From Thermoplasmata archaeon (lineage in GTDB: Archaea > Thermoplasmatota > Penumbrarchaeia > JAEHCK01 > GCA-020356005), in the NCBI GenBank assembly GCA_020356005.1, contig CP070629.1, positions 268,962-275,236 on the forward strand: a DNA stretch of 6,275 nt, written 5' to 3'. The notes beneath the pieces are model-generated. The model did no database searches, was not told the DNA's origin, and worked only from the letters and a program-made list of their open reading frames with translations. The first letter of the stretch is position 1; each line of letters starts with the position of its first letter. Below are positions 1 to 6,275 of the stretch, in pieces. The translations under genes were made by a program, and so were the position numbers.

Positions 1-12
1 CGGAAGAAGAAG

Positions 13-336
13 ATGGAAACCGTTACTGAACAGCAAGGTGAGTTATCTGCATTCGATAAAATGACAGTGGGGCAGGTACAATTAGGACCGAAAGGTGAAG
101 GCCCAGTAAGTCCGTCAACCCAGCCCGTTGCCGGGGAAGGGCCGAGGGTTATCAGTATCAAAGCAGGGCTTTCTCAGGTGGGTGCTCACCCAGATGACAG
201 CTCCGGTTTGATCAGCTGTCCAACATGCTCGCATAAATTCAAAATCCCACAGAGATATGCATCAGCTATAGATAAAAAACAGCACATACAGCTTACCTGT
301 CCGAAATGTAAGACAAGAATTAGTCGACGTTCATGA
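13..336 (+). CDS. Small zinc-ribbon protein with a C-terminal CPxC-X23-CPxC (MJ0042-like zinc finger) and a low-complexity N-terminal part; possibly truncated at the 5' end by the window edge
   Basis: ORF 13-336. The same frame is open from nt 1 (RKKK precedes the ATG), so the true start may lie upstream of the window. Cys pairs C69/C72 (nt 217-228) and C96/C99 (nt 298-309) sit in ISCPTCSHKFKIP...LTCPKCKTRI, a two-knuckle zinc-ribbon pattern. Stop TGA 334-336 is followed directly by T5 (337-341), an archaeal-type termination signal. Confidence 0.6.
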   Translation: METVTEQQGELSAFDKMTVGQVQLGPKGEGPVSPSTQPVAGEGPRVISIKAGLSQVGAHPDDSSGLISCPTCSHKFKIPQRYASAIDKKQHIQLTCPKCKTRISRRS

Positions 337-380
337 TTTTTGATTAATTATAAATTGATTATAGAGGTGCGGTACACGTT

Positions 381-625
381 GAGCGGTTGCGAAGGGCGTA
401 CCGATTAACGGTTGCGATACTCGTCTCGTAAAACGGAATCGAGGCCCGTCTCGTTATAAGGGCTCGAGGCTCGTCTCGTGATTTGTGCCTCGGTATTGGG
501 TGCTTAACTTAAACGACACACGAGACGACTCACCAGTACGATCCACCAGACGAGCTTCCACCCCGACAAGCGAGACGAATAACGAAACCGCAGGACGTTA
601 CGCCCCTCGCAAACGCAAACCGCTG
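381..625. repeat. Dyad-symmetric non-coding element: three 25-bp iterons (420-444, 445-469, 470-493) mirrored by three inverted iterons (505-529, 530-554, 555-579), plus outer inverted boxes (389-400 / 599-610); symmetry axis at 499/500
   Basis: Hand alignment of 381-493 against the reverse complement of 505-625. TCGTCTCGTG 471-480 pairs perfectly with CACGAGACGA 519-528. TCGTCTCG 421-428 pairs perfectly with CGAGACGA 571-578. CGTCT 447-451 pairs with AGACG 548-552. GCGAAGGGCGTA 389-400 matches TACGCCCCTCGC 599-610 at 11/12. All pairs are equidistant from 499/500. The region is about 55 percent GC, against about 21 percent GC in 721-840. Weak symmetry may extend to about 366-645. Confidence 0.8.
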
Positions 626-724
626 AATAGTTGCCCACACCGACCAGAAGAAAATGATTTCGAGGTGTAGGGCCGTGCCGTCAAATTGATGAAAAATTAA
701 TTCGCCCTTCTGGTATCAATTATT

Positions 725-840
725 AAGCTTATATAAGCAGTCAAAAATCTTAATAAATCAACATAACTTTAAATACAATCCAACTAAATCTTTATAACCT
801 ACCTTTATTTTTTAGATAACTATATTTAATCTCCTAAGAT
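725..840 (+). promoter_or_regulatory. AT-rich promoter region of the aldolase-like/mtnA operon, with candidate archaeal TATA boxes
   Basis: 721-840 is about 21 percent GC by hand count. TATATTTA at 821-828 is centred about 25 nt upstream of ATG 850, which would give a leaderless or near-leaderless mRNA. There is also a perfect 12-bp palindrome GCTTATATAAGC at 727-738 centred on TATATA, and TTTATAAC at 791-798. No Shine-Dalgarno-like sequence precedes 841 or 850. Confidence 0.35.
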
Positions 841-849
841 GTGAACTCT

Positions 850-1467
850 ATGCAGAGCCGAGATCCGTACCAATCCGAAATATTCTTCCTGGGTGTACAG
901 GAGATCGATGCTGAACCGTTACAAGAGATCAACGAGAACCTCATACGGCTAGAAGAGCTTTCTGAGCGGAATCACCCCGAGTTCGTTATTGCATCATTGA
1001 GCGTACGCTGGGGTAAGAAATTCTATTTGTCAACCGGCGAGGTTGTCAACACCCCTGTGAACCCGAATGATTTCGTCGAAATCGTCGATTACGACCCTGT
1101 CAGGAATTCGGCGCTCGCCGTAGGCAAAACAGGACCAAATGAGGATATGCCCTTCCACTGGTTCTCTTACCGCACATTCCCGCATATTAACGGCATCGCA
1201 GTTGTCAAATTATTGGTTGATATTGATATTGACAAATTTGTGGATATTAAAAGCATAGATTCGGAGATCAAGCTTTTCCAGCCAGATATTATTTTGAATA
1301 TTTTACCGCATATGAAAGAGGGATCGAGTATAAATCTCCTGGGAAAGGGTATAGCTTTTTATAATAATTCATTCAAGGATTTATTTTCTGAATTGATACA
1401 ATTTTTTAAGAACCTTGAGAGTCATTTACCGAAAGAGGAATCGGAACAAAAAGGTGCTGATAAATGA
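850..1467 (+). CDS. Diverged class II aldolase/adducin-fold protein (MtnB/FucA-like) lacking the zinc-ligand histidines; function unknown
   Basis: The ORF track starts at GTG 841. ATG 850 is preferred because of the TATA-like box at 821-828. By-eye alignment to the class II aldolase pattern (numbering from 841): SLSVRWGKKFYLSTGE resembles GNxSxR..xxITPSG; DFVEIVDYD resembles the xVxxD strand; PNEDMPFHWFSYRTFP...IAVVK aligns residue for residue with E. coli FucA PSSEWRFHMAAYQSRP...AVVH; NLLGKGIAFYNNSFKDLFSELIQ resembles LLxxHGxxxxGxxLxxAxxxxExxE. The stop overlaps the mtnA start (ATGA at 1464-1467). Confidence 0.75.
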   Translation: MQSRDPYQSEIFFLGVQEIDAEPLQEINENLIRLEELSERNHPEFVIASLSVRWGKKFYLSTGEVVNTPVNPNDFVEIVDYDPVRNSALAVGKTGPNEDMPFHWFSYRTFPHINGIAVVKLLVDIDIDKFVDIKSIDSEIKLFQPDIILNILPHMKEGSSINLLGKGIAFYNNSFKDLFSELIQFFKNLESHLPKEESEQKGADK

Positions 1468-2498
1468 AGGTAAAGCTCGGTGGCGAAATCAAGAATTATC
1501 CGGCGGTGTGGCTGAAGGATGATGTTGTCAAATTCATAGACCAGCGCGCACTACCTCACGAATTTACTATTTTTGAGGCCAGAAGCTACCAGGATGTGGC
1601 AGAAGCCATAAACACAATGATCGTGCGCGGTGCACCCGCCATCGGCGTGGCCGCAGCTTACGGAATGGCGCTGGCAGCGAGGCAGCCTGACGCATCATTG
1701 GAATCCGCATCAGAGGTGTTATTTGCAACGCGGCCAACGGCATATGATCTGGACTTTGCTTTGAATTATATGAAGGACGCGTGCGGGACCGAATCTGTTT
1801 CAGCAGAGAAAGCAGCCGAAGCAGCAAGGTCCTATGCTGATAAAATAATAGAACGATGTAAAAAGATCGGTGAAAATGGCGAAGGGTTGATTAAAGATGG
1901 AATGAACATTCTAACTCACTGCAATGCAGGTGCACTGGCAACTGTTGAATACGGTACCGCTTTAGCGCCCATGCGCCTTGCAGCCGGGAAAGGAAAAAAG
2001 TTCTTTGTTTATGTGGACGAAACCCGTCCTCGTTTACAGGGAGCCAAATTAACCGCGTGGGAACTGAACAACGAGGACATTCCATGCGCGGTAATCGCCG
2101 ATAATGCCGCCGGGTATTACATGAAGAATAAAGATATCGATATTGTAATTACAGGTGCAGATAGAATTGCCGCTCTTGGTGACGCCGCAAATAAGATCGG
2201 CACATATGAAAAAGCGGTTCTGGCAAAGGAGAACGGGATTCCATTCTATATCGCAGCGCCTGTTAGTACTTTTGATGCAGATATACAAAAAGGAGAGGAT
2301 ATCCCCATCGAGAACAGGGACCCTGAAGAGGTTCTTGAGCTGGACGGCAGGAAAATAACACCAGAGGGCGTGGATGCCAAGAACCCGGCTTTCGATGTAA
2401 CCCCGGCGAAATATATTGAGGGATTCATAACAGAAATTGGAATTCTAAAACCCGATCAACTAAAAGATACTATTTTTTCTAAAAAGATTTCATTTTAA
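1464..2498 (+). CDS. mtnA: S-methyl-5-thioribose-1-phosphate isomerase (MtnA; eIF-2B alpha/beta/delta-like family)
   Basis: 344-aa ORF with MtnA hallmark blocks: FIDQRALPHE, MIVRGAPAIGVAAAYGMALAA, THCNAGALAT (Cys at nt 1920-1922), DETRPRLQGAKLTAWEL, GADRIAALGDAANKIGTY (Asp at nt 2160-2162) and NPAFDVTPAKYI. Its ATG overlaps the upstream stop by 4 nt. Confidence 0.9.
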   Translation: MKVKLGGEIKNYPAVWLKDDVVKFIDQRALPHEFTIFEARSYQDVAEAINTMIVRGAPAIGVAAAYGMALAARQPDASLESASEVLFATRPTAYDLDFALNYMKDACGTESVSAEKAAEAARSYADKIIERCKKIGENGEGLIKDGMNILTHCNAGALATVEYGTALAPMRLAAGKGKKFFVYVDETRPRLQGAKLTAWELNNEDIPCAVIADNAAGYYMKNKDIDIVITGADRIAALGDAANKIGTYEKAVLAKENGIPFYIAAPVSTFDADIQKGEDIPIENRDPEEVLELDGRKITPEGVDAKNPAFDVTPAKYIEGFITEIGILKPDQLKDTIFSKKISF

Positions 2499-2514: not shown

Positions 2515-2537
2515 ATCCTTTCGGAAGAGGAAAGGAT
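2515..2537 (+). other. Perfect 8-bp stem / 7-nt loop hairpin downstream of mtnA, immediately preceding the solo repeat copy
   Basis: ATCCTTTC (2515-2522) and GAAAGGAT (2530-2537) are exact reverse complements, with loop GGAAGAG. The hairpin lies 17 nt after the mtnA stop (TAA 2496-2498), between convergent genes. Whether it acts as a terminator is unknown, since archaeal termination mainly uses oligo-T. Confidence 0.4.
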
Positions 2538-2587
2538 GAGACGAACTTCGCTTCCGCTTTACGTTACGCCCCTCGCCACCGCTAAAC
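2538..2587 (+). repeat. Solo partial copy of the outer right arm of the 381-625 dyad element, in the same orientation
   Basis: GAGACGAA (2538-2545), then N15, then ACGTTACGCCCCTCGC (2561-2576), then CACCGCT (2577-2583). The right arm of the dyad element has GAGACGAA (572-579), N15, the identical 16-mer (595-610), then AACCGCT (618-624). The 6-nt duplication CGCAAACGCAAA seen at 608-619 is absent from this copy. Confidence 0.75.
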
Positions 2588-2640
2588 GTTAGGCGCTCTT
2601 CTATAATCGATTAAAAAGCTTATAGTTTTAGCTTATAATT

Positions 2641-3348
2641 TCACTTAATTATCTCAATGCCTCTTGTAGTTATTGTAAATGGATGCATAGACGTGTCATG
2701 CCAGGTGTGACGCATTTTTCGGACCACAAGCGAACGGCTCAATTTACCCTCAACTTCTTTTAAACCCAGGAGAATGAATGAATCCGCAACGTACTCCTCC
2801 ACTTCGAACCGTGTGGTGGAATCATGTGTGGATTCAGTAATAAGAACCGCCGTGATTTTGTTCGATTTAAGAAACCTGACGAAATTAATAAGACTTCGCC
2901 GGAATTCTTCACGTGATACATAAAACGCACCGACGGCACTGACAGAATCGATCACTATTCGTTTGGCCTTGCTCAACTTGATAAGGTTCTGGAGCAGGTC
3001 CGTAATGCTGCGGAAGCCGTTGACCTTGGTGCTGCCCCGCCCGTCCGCTTCGGGCTCACCCAAATCGATAAGAAATAATTTACCGGTACTTATCAGCTGC
3101 TCCACATCCATGCCGTGGGCATTCATTGTGGCCTTTACACTTTCACTCCCCTCTTCCAGTGTGATGAATATCCCGGGCTCGTTAAAGCCCTTTGCACCGT
3201 TGTAAAGATACTGCATAGCGAAAAGACTTTTTCCTGAACCGGCCGGGCCGCTTACAAGGGTAATTGTATTTTCAATCAACCCCCCGTCCATAATATTATC
3301 TAAGCCAGGAATGCCAGTTCGAACTCGGGTTAAGGGTGCCATAGGCAT
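2641..3348 (-). CDS. Single-domain KaiC-like / RecA-superfamily ATPase (COG0467-type, KaiC/RAD55 family)
   Basis: 235-aa ORF. The N-terminus has TGIPGLDNIMDGGL followed by Walker A GPAGSGKS (nt 3226-3249). The KaiC-type FITLEEG acidic pair and a Walker B-like RIVIDSVS are present. Length matches one KaiC domain. On the minus strand a T5 run (complement of A5 at 2613-2617) follows the stop. Confidence 0.85.
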   Translation of the reverse strand: MPMAPLTRVRTGIPGLDNIMDGGLIENTITLVSGPAGSGKSLFAMQYLYNGAKGFNEPGIFITLEEGSESVKATMNAHGMDVEQLISTGKLFLIDLGEPEADGRGSTKVNGFRSITDLLQNLIKLSKAKRIVIDSVSAVGAFYVSREEFRRSLINFVRFLKSNKITAVLITESTHDSTTRFEVEEYVADSFILLGLKEVEGKLSRSLVVRKMRHTWHDTSMHPFTITTRGIEIIK

Positions 3349-3467: not shown

Positions 3468-3470
3468 GTG

Positions 3471-5243
3471 ATGACCGAGCCCACTTCAAAATTCGATAAC
3501 AGCTTCGAATCGGTAGACCCGCTGGCAAATTACAGGAACACCTGTTCGCAACTTCTGGAGAGCGCGGTAATGGAGTTTAAGGTTAAAAAGGTGCCGCAGA
3601 TGGAGATACCGACATCACCTGAACTCGCAGATTTTGCATACCCGTGTTTTTCCCTGGCAAAGGATCTTAAATTACCGCCGCAAAAAATTGCTGAAATGTT
3701 ATTAAATAAAATCGGCGCAGTTGAAAATTTAAAAATATCAGCGGTAAAGGGCTACTTGAATTTTAAAATCAACCTTAAGCCGCTGGCTGGTGCTACTATA
3801 CCTCTGATACTAAAAGAGAAACAGGAGTACGGTACATTTCCAAATATCGGCAAGCGGATAATTCTGGAGCACACCAGCGCCAATCCCAACGGACCGTTCC
3901 ATGTAGGGCGGGCGCGCAACCCGATCATCGGTGATACGCTGGCGCGGTTATTACGAAAGGTTGGATATGAGGTTGAGGTACAGTACTGGGTTAACGATAT
4001 GGGCAAGCAGGCCGCCATACTCGGCTGGGGCGTTCAAAACCTAAGCGGAGATTCCCTGCCGGCTGCCGGCTCAACCAAGAAGGACCATGAGCTGGTCAGG
4101 TACTACCAAAGCGCTTATAAGAAAATGGAAGAGGACCCGGATGTTGAAGGTGTAATCACCAGGATGATCCAATCCTACGAACGAGGCGACATCGATGAAT
4201 TGAATAAACTTAAAAAGCCCTGTTCGGATGTTCTGGCGGGGATGGTGGAATCGCTGGAAAGAATGAATATTTTCGTTGACAAATTCGTCTGGGAATCGGA
4301 ATCGGTACTGGACGGGGGCGTTGATGAAGTTATTGCGAAATTGAAGAAATCGAAAATCACAAAAGAAGAAGAAGGGGCATATTACCTGGACCTGGAGGGC
4401 TATGAGCTCGGCGGCAAGACCAGCAGGTTCGTTTTTACCCGCAGCGACGGGACATCACTTTATACAACCAGAGACCTAGCATATCACTGGAACAAACTTC
4501 AGAACTGTGATATCGCCATCAATATCCTCGGAGAGGATCATAAGCTCCAGGCCAGGCAGCTGGAGATCGCACTGAAGATTATGGGTATGGAGCATGTACC
4601 AGAGGTGGTGTTCTACTCGTTTGTATCGCTGGAGGAGGGGAAGATGTCCACCAGGAAGGGTCAGGTGGTATACCTGGATGACCTGATGGAGGAAGCTGCC
4701 GCACGGGCGAGAAAGGAGGTGGAGACCAGGCGCCCTGAACTGCCTGATGATAAGAAGAGTGAAATTGCGGATGTAGTTGGGCTGGGTGCCATTCGCTATA
4801 ATTTGATTCGGGTTCAGCCCGAGAAGAAAATCGTATTTAAGTGGATGGATGCGCTGAATTTCGAAGGCAACAGTGCACCCTTTGTACAGTACTCCCATGC
4901 GCGGGCCTGCAGTATTTTACGAAAAGCGGAAGAAATGCTGGCAGGGTATTCGGATTATTCAACAGATCTTCTGGACAGCCCCGCGGAAGATGAACTGATA
5001 CGAAATCTGGCGCGGCTGCCGTCTCTAATCCATGAATGCGCACATACGAGAAAACCCCATCCCGTTGCGGCATACGCATACAAAACCGCCGCGCTGTTCA
5101 ACCAATTTTACAAGGACTGCCCGGTTCTACCGGCAGAATCAGATGAGCTGAGGGCCTCCAGACTCGCTCTTGTAGAAGCCTCCAGGTGGGCACTGGCTGT
5201 GGCTCTGGACTTGATTGGTATTAACGCACCTGAACAGATGTGA
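3471..5243 (+). CDS. argS: Arginine--tRNA ligase (arginyl-tRNA synthetase, class I)
   Basis: The ORF track starts at GTG 3468; the adjacent ATG 3471 is the more likely start. It has the HIGH-region block EHTSANPNGPFHVGRARNPIIGD (nt 3867-3935), the ArgRS-type MSTRKG motif in place of KMSKS (nt 4644-4661), YTTRDLAYH, a DALR-like anticodon-binding C-terminal domain, and the typical ArgRS C-terminal Met (..NAPEQM). The stop is followed by TTTT at 5262-5265. Confidence 0.93.
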   Translation: MTEPTSKFDNSFESVDPLANYRNTCSQLLESAVMEFKVKKVPQMEIPTSPELADFAYPCFSLAKDLKLPPQKIAEMLLNKIGAVENLKISAVKGYLNFKINLKPLAGATIPLILKEKQEYGTFPNIGKRIILEHTSANPNGPFHVGRARNPIIGDTLARLLRKVGYEVEVQYWVNDMGKQAAILGWGVQNLSGDSLPAAGSTKKDHELVRYYQSAYKKMEEDPDVEGVITRMIQSYERGDIDELNKLKKPCSDVLAGMVESLERMNIFVDKFVWESESVLDGGVDEVIAKLKKSKITKEEEGAYYLDLEGYELGGKTSRFVFTRSDGTSLYTTRDLAYHWNKLQNCDIAINILGEDHKLQARQLEIALKIMGMEHVPEVVFYSFVSLEEGKMSTRKGQVVYLDDLMEEAAARARKEVETRRPELPDDKKSEIADVVGLGAIRYNLIRVQPEKKIVFKWMDALNFEGNSAPFVQYSHARACSILRKAEEMLAGYSDYSTDLLDSPAEDELIRNLARLPSLIHECAHTRKPHPVAAYAYKTAALFNQFYKDCPVLPAESDELRASRLALVEASRWALAVALDLIGINAPEQM

Positions 5244-5311
5244 ATTACCAGACCGCTCTGATTTTACATTGATTCATAATGCTATAAGACCACTACAAAG
5301 AGAATATGAAA

Positions 5312-5373
5312 ATAGTCGTTGTGAGATCGCTCTGATATCATGCAGATTATAGTCGCTGTGAGAGGGCTCTAAT
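5312..5373. repeat. Imperfect 25-nt direct repeat in the spacer between convergent genes
   Basis: ATAGTCGTTGTGAGATCGCTCTGAT (5312-5336) and ATAGTCGCTGTGAGAGGGCTCTAAT (5349-5373) match at 21/25, with a period of 37 nt. CGCTCTGAT also occurs at 5254-5262. Confidence 0.6.
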
Positions 5374-5379
5374 TGATTT

Positions 5380-6275
5380 CTAACCGCTTTCGTCTGATTT
5401 CTCAACTTTCGGTTTTGGTTCCTGTACTTCTTCTGCAACAGGTTCTGCCGGTGCTGCTGTGGGTGTGGGTGTAGGGGTCGGTGTTGGGGTAGGAGTGGGT
5501 GTTGGAGTTGGAGCGGGTGTGGGCGTGGGTGTGGGTGCTGGCGTCGGGGTTGGTTCCGCTGGTGCTGGCGCTGCAGGTAAAGCCTCAACGGCTACTGCGG
5601 GTTCCGGTGTCGGTGTGGGCGTAGATACTAGTTTTGCTGCGGGAGGTTCTCCAGCTGCTGCTTCGGGCTCACCCCCCTCCTCCACGGGTGTGGGTGTTTC
5701 TGTTGATGGTGGGGGCAGCTCCGTCGGGGCTGGCATTGCTGGCAACTCCACAGGTTTCGGTATACCCTCGGGCATAGCTGCCTCGCCGCCTTCGGCACCC
5801 TCAACTGCTGGCACAGGTGTTGGGACTTCACCTAGTGCGGCTGGCGCTTCCACCTCTGCCCCGGGTTCGATTCGGGGTTCCGCACCCTCAGTCACACCCT
5901 CTTTCTTGGCGGCCTCATCTTTCTTCTTCTTCAAAACGAATCCAACAAGTGCTAAAATAACAATTATCACAATAATAATTACCGCGAGGTATAAGGCAGT
6001 ATTTTCGTCCGCTCCTTCTTTTTCCGATGTATCCTTTTTGGTATCATCGTCATCGGTTGTTTTAGGGTTGTAAACATTGACGAGGACATATGATTCATTA
6101 GAATACACCCTTCCATCGTATGATCTGATAGATATATTGTGCAAACCATTTGAGAGCTTTGATGTATCCAGTGTATATTTCCAGTTGATCGTGCCCGACG
6201 CTTCTGTCCATTCGCCGTCATCCACTTTAATCTGTACAACTGCTATACCATCATCCGGGTCAAAGGCCTTCCCCT
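5380..6275 (-). CDS. C-terminal part of a membrane-anchored surface protein: Ig-like domain, acidic stalk, one TM helix, then a Pro/Glu/Ala/Thr-rich tail of about 180 aa with a (TP)n run; the 5' end lies outside the window
   Basis: The track start at 6225 is a GTG inside an open frame. I translated 6226-6273 on the minus strand as GKAFDPDDGIAVVQIK with no stop, so the CDS continues past the window edge. DPDDGIAVVQIKVDDGEWTEASGTINWKYTLDTSKLSNGLHNISIRSYD resembles Ig-like repeats of archaeal and bacterial surface proteins. The TM helix ALYLAVIIIVIIVILALVGFVL (nt 5932-5997) is followed by KKKKDEAAKK. The low-complexity tail spans nt 5383-5931. The stop is TAG (complement of 5380-5382). Confidence 0.8.
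   Translation of the reverse strand, partial: GKAFDPDDGIAVVQIKVDDGEWTEASGTINWKYTLDTSKLSNGLHNISIRSYDGRVYSNESYVLVNVYNPKTTDDDDTKKDTSEKEGADENTALYLAVIIIVIIVILALVGFVLKKKKDEAAKKEGVTEGAEPRIEPGAEVEAPAALGEVPTPVPAVEGAEGGEAAMPEGIPKPVELPAMPAPTELPPPSTETPTPVEEGGEPEAAAGEPPAAKLVSTPTPTPEPAVAVEALPAAPAPAEPTPTPAPTPTPTPAPTPTPTPTPTPTPTPTPTAAPAEPVAEEVQEPKPKVEKSDESG
5458..5553 (-). repeat. Coding (Thr-Pro)n / (Ala-Pro) dipeptide repeat within the surface-protein tail
   Basis: It encodes PTPTPAPTPTPTPAPTPTPTPTPTPTPTPTPT. At the nucleotide level it is (ACN CCN)n with mixed synonymous codons: ACA/ACC/ACT/ACG for Thr and CCC/CCT/CCG/CCA for Pro. The longest perfect nucleotide periodicity is only about 12 nt. Confidence 0.9.

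Follow-up and report, generated by a model that had tools for sequence, protein, structure and literature searches.

A 415-bp intergenic palindrome with phased 25-nt units in a Thermoplasmata archaeon: a candidate palindromic repeat element

Introduction

Inverted sets of short sequence units are found in elements of very different kinds. Foldback-type elements have long inverted ends made of tandem sub-repeats, the ends of Tn7 and Mu carry several phased protein-binding sites in inverted sets, and parC of plasmid R1 contains 5+5 iterons. In bacteria, paired REP sequences form the REPINs or BIMEs, which are mobilised by RAYT tyrosine transposases; REPINs measure about 100 bp and occur in hundreds of copies, and each REP has its own palindrome of about 14 bp (PMC3116915, PMC3337134, bioRxiv 10.1101/2021.07.10.451892). 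They have been reported as undetected in archaea (bioRxiv 10.1101/2021.07.10.451892). Among MITEs, forms that contain a minisatellite are described, for example in Porphyromonas gingivalis (PMC4596501). At archaeal replication origins, TTCC/GAA motifs have been described for the ORB core and multiples of mini-repeats could bind cooperatively (PMC1904270), and there is precedent for a second, regulatory ORB cluster near an origin (PMC1904270, PMC4010727).

The DNA analysed here, called the window throughout, is a stretch of 6,275 nucleotides from the chromosome of a Thermoplasmata archaeon. An intergenic gap of about 510 bp (337-849) holds an array of short repeats that a preliminary description, made from the sequence alone, presented as 3+3 inverted iterons of about 25 bp, preferring a DNA-level protein-binding array (iteron-type origin, centromere-like partition site or multi-operator) to a simple hairpin RNA. 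The neighbours of this gap are housekeeping genes syntenic with those of relatives, and the 205-aa product encoded downstream is 100% identical to 'hypothetical protein JSV49_00820 [Thermoplasmata archaeon]'. The features of the window are collected in Table 1.

Table 1. Location of the palindrome, its parts, the solo module and the protein genes in the window.
Feature	Position	Strand	Details
Complete palindromic element	335-749	.	415 bp; outermost inverted repeat GATTTTTGA...TCAAAAATC
E1, outer AT-rich part	335-378	+	T5 tract, TATA-like TTATAAAT (348-355), ATTGATTATAGAGGTGCG; aligned with the outer parts of E3 and of the L148 modules
E1, two outer 25-nt units	379-419	+	AGCGGTT (382-388), 7-nt spacer, degenerate core GCGTACCG (396-403), AACGGTT (407-413)
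Three left 25-nt units	420-494	+	Cores TCGTCTCG (421-428), CCGTCTCG (446-453), TCGTCTCG (471-478)
Dyad axis	495-504	.	Axis at 499/500; centre not AT-rich
Three right 25-nt units	505-579	-	Cores 528-521, 553-546 (TCGTCTGG), 578-571
E2, outer units	580-627	-	GCGTAACG (603-596), 14-nt spacer including 7 extra nt (611-617), AGCGGTT (624-618)
Insert between E2 and its outer AT-rich box	628-702	.	About 75 nt; local hairpin at about 633-673
E2, outer AT-rich part	703-749	-	T5 tract, TATAAGCTT, AATTGATACCAGAAGGGCG; inverted repeats; E3 gap against 703-733, 77% by blastn
Short hairpin beside the E3 core	2516-2538	.	ATCCTTTC-N7-GAAAGGAT, where a second arm would be
Solo module E3 (L-type)	2534-2640	-	GCGTAACG (2569-2562) and single core TCGTCTCA (2544-2537), 25 nt apart
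Large protein, 3' end	1-336	+	C-terminal zinc ribbon
205-aa protein	850-1467	+	
IF-2B/MtnA-family protein	1464-2498	+	Overlapped by the 205-aa gene
KaiC-domain ATPase	2641-3348	-	
ArgRS	3468-5243	+	
PT-rich membrane protein	5380-6225	-	281 aa

Anatomy of the palindrome

The 3+3 mirror-image array is real and lies far beyond chance. All sequences and coordinates of the preliminary description could be reproduced: the left units (420-444, 445-469 and 470-493) begin CYCGTCTCGT, the first two of them are identical at 19 of 25 positions, the segments 471-480/519-528, 421-428/571-578 and 447-451/548-552 are exact reverse complements, and the outer box at 389-400 matches 599-610 at 11 of 12 positions. 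One detail has to be corrected, since the tandem duplication of the right arm (CGCAAACGCAAA at 608-619) is present but its extra length is 7 nt (611-617) and not 6. Matches to TCGTCTCG with at most one mismatch number 10 in the window against 3.7 expected, and six of these ten fall within 421-578 at an exact spacing of 25 nt, three per strand, a triple-core pattern that appeared in none of 200 shuffles. Ungapped mirroring about 499/500 gives 72 Watson-Crick matches in 125 pairs, compared with a mean of 45.2 (sd 2.1, maximum 56) for the best axis in each of 500 shuffles. Self-identity peaks at a lag of 25 (0.60 in the left arm, 0.49 in the right), and both phase and register are exact in the mirror comparison, with no indels.

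The 25-nt phase runs outward past the three units of each arm into the degenerate cores, so that the boxes stand at 396/421/446/471 on the plus strand and at 603/578/553/528 on the minus strand, with 2569/2544 in the solo module E3; A[AG]CGG boxes keep the same phase at 383, 407 and 432. The GC island noticed earlier at 381-625 has 55.5% GC, against 10% in 337-365 and 23% in 681-840; inside it, 451-550 has 51% and the arm centre (481-518) about 42%.

The array is no stand-alone object; it forms the inner, expanded portion of a palindrome 415 bp long, whose symmetry is carried out to 335-749 by inverted repeats rich in AT (348-371/703-726 and 335-352/732-749). An 8-nt direct repeat, AAATTGAT, lies inside the palindrome at 352-359 and 683-690. 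Folded as single-stranded DNA, the 415 nt reach z = -7.5. Each arm is a module of about 100 nt, in which a T-tract and a TATA-like box are followed by ATCGATT.TAGAAG and then by the phased 25-nt units. The TATA-like box at 348-355, which had been remarked on as a possible promoter of the array, belongs to this conserved module in all five copies described below. The element has no coding capacity, the small ORFs at 485-670 (+) and 504-638 (-) being unsupported.

A small family of modules

Three modules are found in the window: E1 (335-432, plus strand), E2 (749-567, minus strand) and E3 (2640-2534, minus strand). E3 lies directly downstream of the KaiC-domain gene and on the same strand, in the 143-bp gap between the MtnA-like and KaiC genes, 2 kb from the palindrome. 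It matches 353-427 with 73% identity over 75 nt in blastn (E = 9e-9) and with E = 3.5e-22 in nhmmer, has no partner arm and folds unremarkably on its own (z = -0.38).

A profile made from the three window copies alone and run against all fetched related loci finds matches elsewhere only in L148, a JGI metagenome contig of a relative whose ArgRS is 70% identical. The L148 modules form an inverted pair (4963-5012, plus strand, and 5097-5043, minus strand; E about 1e-5 each) in the gap between the KaiC and CBS genes, just downstream of the KaiC-domain gene, a position orthologous to that of E3. This element has the outer two units and lacks the TCGTCTCG units. In both palindromes the spacing from AGCGGTT to GCGTAACG is 7 nt in one arm and 14 nt in the other, the longer spacer of L148 sitting in its R arm; the palindrome as a whole is therefore homologous between the two genomes, although the loci are non-orthologous. 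The spacer beyond the shared units measures about 150 nt in the window and about 20 nt in L148.

The five modules share 22 invariant columns, chiefly G.GA.GGGCGTA.CG, and the other intergenic DNA of the two genomes cannot be aligned. With 57-66% identity the copies are old and diverged, and there is no sign of recent amplification because two copies of the same genome resemble each other hardly more than copies of two genomes do. None of them falls within a gene, and at two of the three family loci the flanking genes converge, with their 3' ends toward the modules. The array is thus the centre of one member of a small repeat family found between the genes of uncultured Thermoplasmata archaea. 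A conserved sub-hairpin within the single module was also considered and rejected, as the GGTAC/GTACC stem of E1 is missing from E3 and from L148.

Wider scans gave no further members. A genome scan for three CGTCTCG motifs with gaps of 16-20 nt returned more than 120 chance matches in high-GC bacteria, none of them related, and a metagenome scan with the three-core dyad pattern returned 25 loci, all of them chance matches or unrelated high-GC sequences. Scans of viral sequences gave 0 matches, and distant-mode blastn against plasmids and phages gave no match. Three contigs of the Ga0081539 metagenome, from a high-GC organism, carry inverted arrays of 16-nt tandem units (CTCGTCGTCTCGTCAG; L132 6480-6620, L135 7360-7440 and L143 8760-8830), which contain the search pattern in a context unrelated to that of the window element.

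Presence and absence at the main locus

In relatives, the gap upstream of the 205/212-aa gene measures 94 bp (L148, L154 and L155) or 176 bp (L156), and in L001 it is 450 bp long, bears simple tandem repeats, is unrelated in sequence and has no unusual fold (z = -1.5 and -0.9). The gap of the window equals about 100 bp plus the palindrome, which is a discrete presence/absence difference of 415 bp against the other genomes. Conservation at orthologous loci had been proposed as a test of the array. At the main locus it is rejected, the element being missing there in L001, L148, L154, L155 and L156, but the module pair of L148 occupies the site orthologous to E3. Profile and locus comparison together find the element absent from L001, L149, L152 and L154-L156.

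Simple tandem repeats of 7-12 nt are common between the genes of this clade and are genome-specific (ctttaaa, ctaactg, CTCCGTA and GGGTTCATNGAG); examples lie at L001 6400-6500, L153 about 1230-1290 and L156 3260-3392.

Comparison with known repeat systems

In kind, the element seems closest to REPINs and BIMEs, and MITEs that have tandem repeats inside them (PMC4596501) are close as well; membership of either class would be tentative. Like REPINs, it is extragenic and consists of two inverted conserved modules around a variable spacer, with a predicted hairpin: the window holds the pair E1/E2 and the singlet E3, and L148 holds another pair. Singlets as remnants and long persistence at orthologous sites in relatives are further points in common, and for REPINs, too, no target-site duplication is expected. 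On the other hand, the element is 200-415 bp long, or 2-4 times larger, and its family count covers the window and the fetched loci only; the solo module by itself shows no significant fold, the arms are made of phased 25-nt units, and no RAYT gene was seen in the window or in related loci.

The likeness to MITEs and foldback elements lies in small size, AT-rich flanks, terminal inverted repeats (335-352/732-749 and 348-371/703-726 in the 415 bp), internal tandem units, non-coding sequence with only short unsupported ORFs, and presence or absence between relatives. We know of no autonomous element related to the window palindrome. Unlike such elements, the best-conserved blocks are internal rather than terminal and the copies are 57-66% identical rather than nearly identical. 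Dozens of near-identical copies with target-site duplications had been named as the sign of a plain MITE; there is no duplication at 335/749, where the flanks (...GTTCAT before GATTTTTGA and TTAATA after TCAAAAATC) have no direct repeat. The dispersed family and the presence/absence difference nevertheless shift the array towards that mobile-repeat alternative.

The ends of transposons and the centromeres of plasmids share with this element short boxes at fixed spacing, two inverted sets, and conservation of the boxes with free spacers. They differ in that no transposase or partition gene is adjacent here, a phase of 25 bp does not correspond to an integral number of helical turns and the boxes are putative sites.

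A proposed DNA-level palindromic repeat element

The reading that we favour, with a probability of roughly 0.4, is that of a palindromic repeat element at the level of DNA, similar in type to REPINs, MITEs or foldback elements, with phased boxes to which a protein would bind. The unit of the family would be the module of about 100 nt, with an AT-rich terminus followed by phased 25-bp units, each with an A[AG]CGG box and a box of 8 bp (GCGTAACG or TCGTCTCG). An element would consist of two inverted modules, and single modules would be remnants. In the source genome the inner unit may have been multiplied to three per arm, giving a lineage-specific 3+3 array of TCGTCTCG. We infer that the phased boxes would be bound by a DNA-acting protein, most likely an enzyme that copies or moves the whole element, and that the paired arms would permit a fold-back form.

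Several observations count in favour of this reading. The modules form a family spread over two genomes, the palindrome is present or absent as a discrete block, it is the sequence that is conserved and not the pairing, the copies are extragenic, and there is no Rfam match and no coding capacity. Moreover, the element may have been copied as a unit, given that the 7/14 spacer asymmetry recurs in both palindromes at non-orthologous loci. Counted against it are the age of the copies, the lack of a target-site duplication and, in the window and the related loci, of any gene for a transposase or recombinase, and the inward T-tract and TATA-like box of each module, which would suit transcription equally; a further difficulty is the exact 3+3 register, left unexplained by simple decay. 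That genomes with only 70% identity in ArgRS have kept a module at orthologous sites suggests either a benefit to the host or a very long-lived maintenance.

Palindromic repeats of this kind are poorly documented in archaea, and those of the REPIN type are reported absent there. If copies of the family prove to be scattered over the genome, archaea would have a palindromic repeat of unusual structure and long life, which would point to an unknown sequence-specific DNA-binding enzyme. If it is confined to this neighbourhood, it would represent a new kind of chromosomal site beside ORB-like clusters in a clade without cultured members. Whichever applies, the element ought to be annotated to prevent confusion with sRNA genes, origins or CRISPR-like arrays.

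Possible origin, partition and other host sites

The specific identities proposed in the preliminary description fare less well than its preference for DNA over RNA. An iteron-type origin finds neither an AT-rich centre between the arms nor an initiator gene nearby, a centromere-like partition site finds no partition gene, and a multi-operator finds no regulator gene, according to the Pfam domains of all window genes; orc1/cdc6, whiP, par and seg are not within reach in the window or in the gene lists of L001 and L148. A plasmid-type iteron origin or centromere is rejected in the same way, phased repeats being present and a rep or par gene absent. An operator for the downstream mtnA-like operon is disfavoured, as is a multi-operator in general, by the position of two of the three family loci between convergent 3' ends. 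The statements that the array is neither an archaeal ORB nor a CRISPR hold: the ORB-like motif of relatives is unmatched with up to 3 mismatches and the TTCC/GAA core is lacking, and the units are contiguous 25-mers in a mirror pair.

A broader form of this idea is that the palindromes are chromosomal platforms of the host, for instance origin-accessory, centromere-like or chromatin-organising, on whose 25-bp-phased boxes (with a sub-period of 12.5 bp) a protein would oligomerise. We regard this as a credible alternative, though an unlikely one. Box-wise conservation in strict phase would fit it, as would a module kept at an orthologous site across deep divergence. The element also shares with archaeal oriC ORB and mini-ORB arrays the inverted intergenic repeat sets, where multiples of mini-repeats could bind cooperatively (PMC1904270), and a regulatory second ORB cluster has precedent (PMC1904270, PMC4010727). 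In the same neighbourhood relatives have ORB-like inverted repeat clusters, the window itself has four weak units of this 37-nt type at 5244-5380, and ATCGATTCTAG is common to the R arm of L148 and to L001, standing right before TAGCAGG and TAGTGGA, respectively. What speaks against host platforms is that the boxes are unlike the ORB core, that no initiator or partition gene (orc1/cdc6, par, seg) is adjacent, and that the position of the element differs between genomes, six of the loci compared having none. Additionally, a centre with about 42-50% GC is not an unwinding element, AT-rich DNA being found only outside the arms.

The ORB-like clusters deserve description in their own right. They are inverted-repeat clusters of CACTAGTGG(AAAGTG)GACCGCT at L001 9170-9850, L151 2960-3107 and L148 12085-12461, resemble the archaeal ORB core (cf. 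TTCCAGTGGAACT, PMC1904270) and lie in a different intergenic gap in each relative, on contigs from which cdc6 is absent. The cluster of L148 is a 3+3 inverted array with a 37-nt period and an AT-rich centre. Such clusters could be origins or another dispersed repeat family. The four units of the window are direct repeats of about 37 nt in the convergent gap between the ArgRS and PT-rich genes, with GACCGCT-type boxes at 5251, 5287, 5324 and 5361 and with GACCGCTCTGATTTTA, which is identical to L151 2989-3004; against a profile of the relatives' ORB-like units they score weakly (E 0.036-4). Homology of the modules to these 37-nt units was also considered and rejected, the shared boxes being only suggestive and the profile of ORB-like units missing the modules.

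Pairing or sequence: the RNA question

A structured non-coding RNA is the next alternative, namely an imperfect hairpin of about 250-320 nt transcribed from the TATA-like box of one module, with helices that would serve as sites of protein binding or processing. We consider it unlikely, slightly more so than host platforms. The fold itself is strong: the hairpin reaches -123.9 kcal/mol on the plus strand (z = -5.2) and -135.9 kcal/mol on the minus strand (z = -6.1), both far better than shuffles, and the L148 element folds as well (z = -5.1 versus -2.8), the better strand being the same one relative to the arm types as in the window. The 55% GC island amid AT-rich flanks would also suit an RNA gene. 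Furthermore, a T-tract and a TATA-like box open every module and point inward, about 23-25 nt before the GC-rich part, and they resemble boxes that precede the start codons of the window's protein genes by about 20-30 nt; their presence in all five modules leaves room for transcription. Neither strand has a clear oligo-T terminator after the hairpin.

Known RNAs are not recognised here. Rfam gives 0 matches at E <= 1 in the whole window or in the L148 element, in agreement with the preliminary description, ARAGORN finds no tRNA or tmRNA in the window, and reading of the sequence shows no K-turn or C/D-box motifs in the internal loops.

The evolution of the arms is the point on which RNA and DNA readings differ most clearly. 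Conservation sits in phased boxes and not along a continuous helix, as had been noted earlier: the cores agree at 46 of 48 positions, and the spacers of the units are about 50% identical. Six cores hold one sequence, where independent helices would drift. Over the 51 columns shared by E1, E2 and E3, identity is 36/51 for E1-E2, 37/51 for E1-E3 and 36/51 for E2-E3, which means that the arms of the palindrome are no closer to each other than either is to the solo copy, and there is no excess of compensated changes because the columns in which a single copy differs split 6, 7 and 6. Likewise, the two arms of one genome are as similar to each other (0.65 for the window, 0.57 for L148) as arms from different genomes are (0.64 and 0.57), in tests of low power that cover two hairpins, or five modules, from two genomes. 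Wobble pairing would accommodate 9 of the mismatches on the plus strand and 10 on the minus strand, a balance that shows no strand bias. The mutations of the middle cores (C446, and TCGTCTGG at 553-546) are uncompensated, the arms of L148 are only 57% complementary, and solo E3 retains its boxes although it has no partner arm and folds no better than chance.

Uncompensated cores, the arm comparisons and the balanced wobble therefore indicate selection on sequence boxes and their spacing rather than on a helix. It is on these grounds (box-wise conservation, arms that do not co-evolve, wobble balance) that the earlier preference for a DNA-level array over a simple hairpin RNA stands, separately from the origin, partition or operator identity attached to it.

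Less probable readings

The DNA-level repeat element could in principle be more than a relative of known families: it might be an archaeal counterpart of the REPIN-RAYT system, with long-lived, vertically inherited palindromic replicators made of phased 25-bp units, or alternatively a new origin-proximal architectural or centromere-like array in Thermoplasmata, a pair of proposals that we treat as quite speculative. The weakest explanation, that of a decaying old inverted duplication of a tandem array with no present function in genomes rich in intergenic tandem repeats, draws on the unrelated repeats of that kind of which relatives are full (L001 6400-6500, L153 and L156) and on arms that are only 58% complementary, but it is very improbable in view of the marked unevenness of conservation between cores and spacers, the 22 invariant columns over five modules in two genomes with otherwise unalignable intergenic DNA, and the exact, indel-free phase and register.

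Neighbouring genes

Some genes of the window have features of their own. The '107-aa' ORF at 1-336 is the C-terminus of a larger protein, as shown by a frame that is already open at base 1. L001, L148 and L154 have orthologues that are Big_7/CARDB proteins of 688-738 aa, and the one in L001 likewise ends in a zinc-ribbon-like CxxC...CxxC motif. The 205-aa protein (850-1467, plus strand) has 0 matches in Pfam and 0 in NCBIfam, and 2 homologues were found by a word-based search. The last 4 nt of its gene, with the stop, are also the first 4 nt of the MtnA-like gene. Since JGI labels a homologue as class II aldolase, the protein may be an MtnB-like partner in methionine salvage.

The KaiC-domain ATPase (2641-3348, minus strand) is 84-88% identical across genomes in which ArgRS reaches only 68-70%, an unusually strong conservation for its family, and its homologues in relatives (P0003-P0012) contain DUF7125. 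Finally, the minus-strand gene of the 281-aa membrane protein has tandem repeats of 12 and 18 nt at 5435-5640, which code for its Pro/Thr-rich linker.
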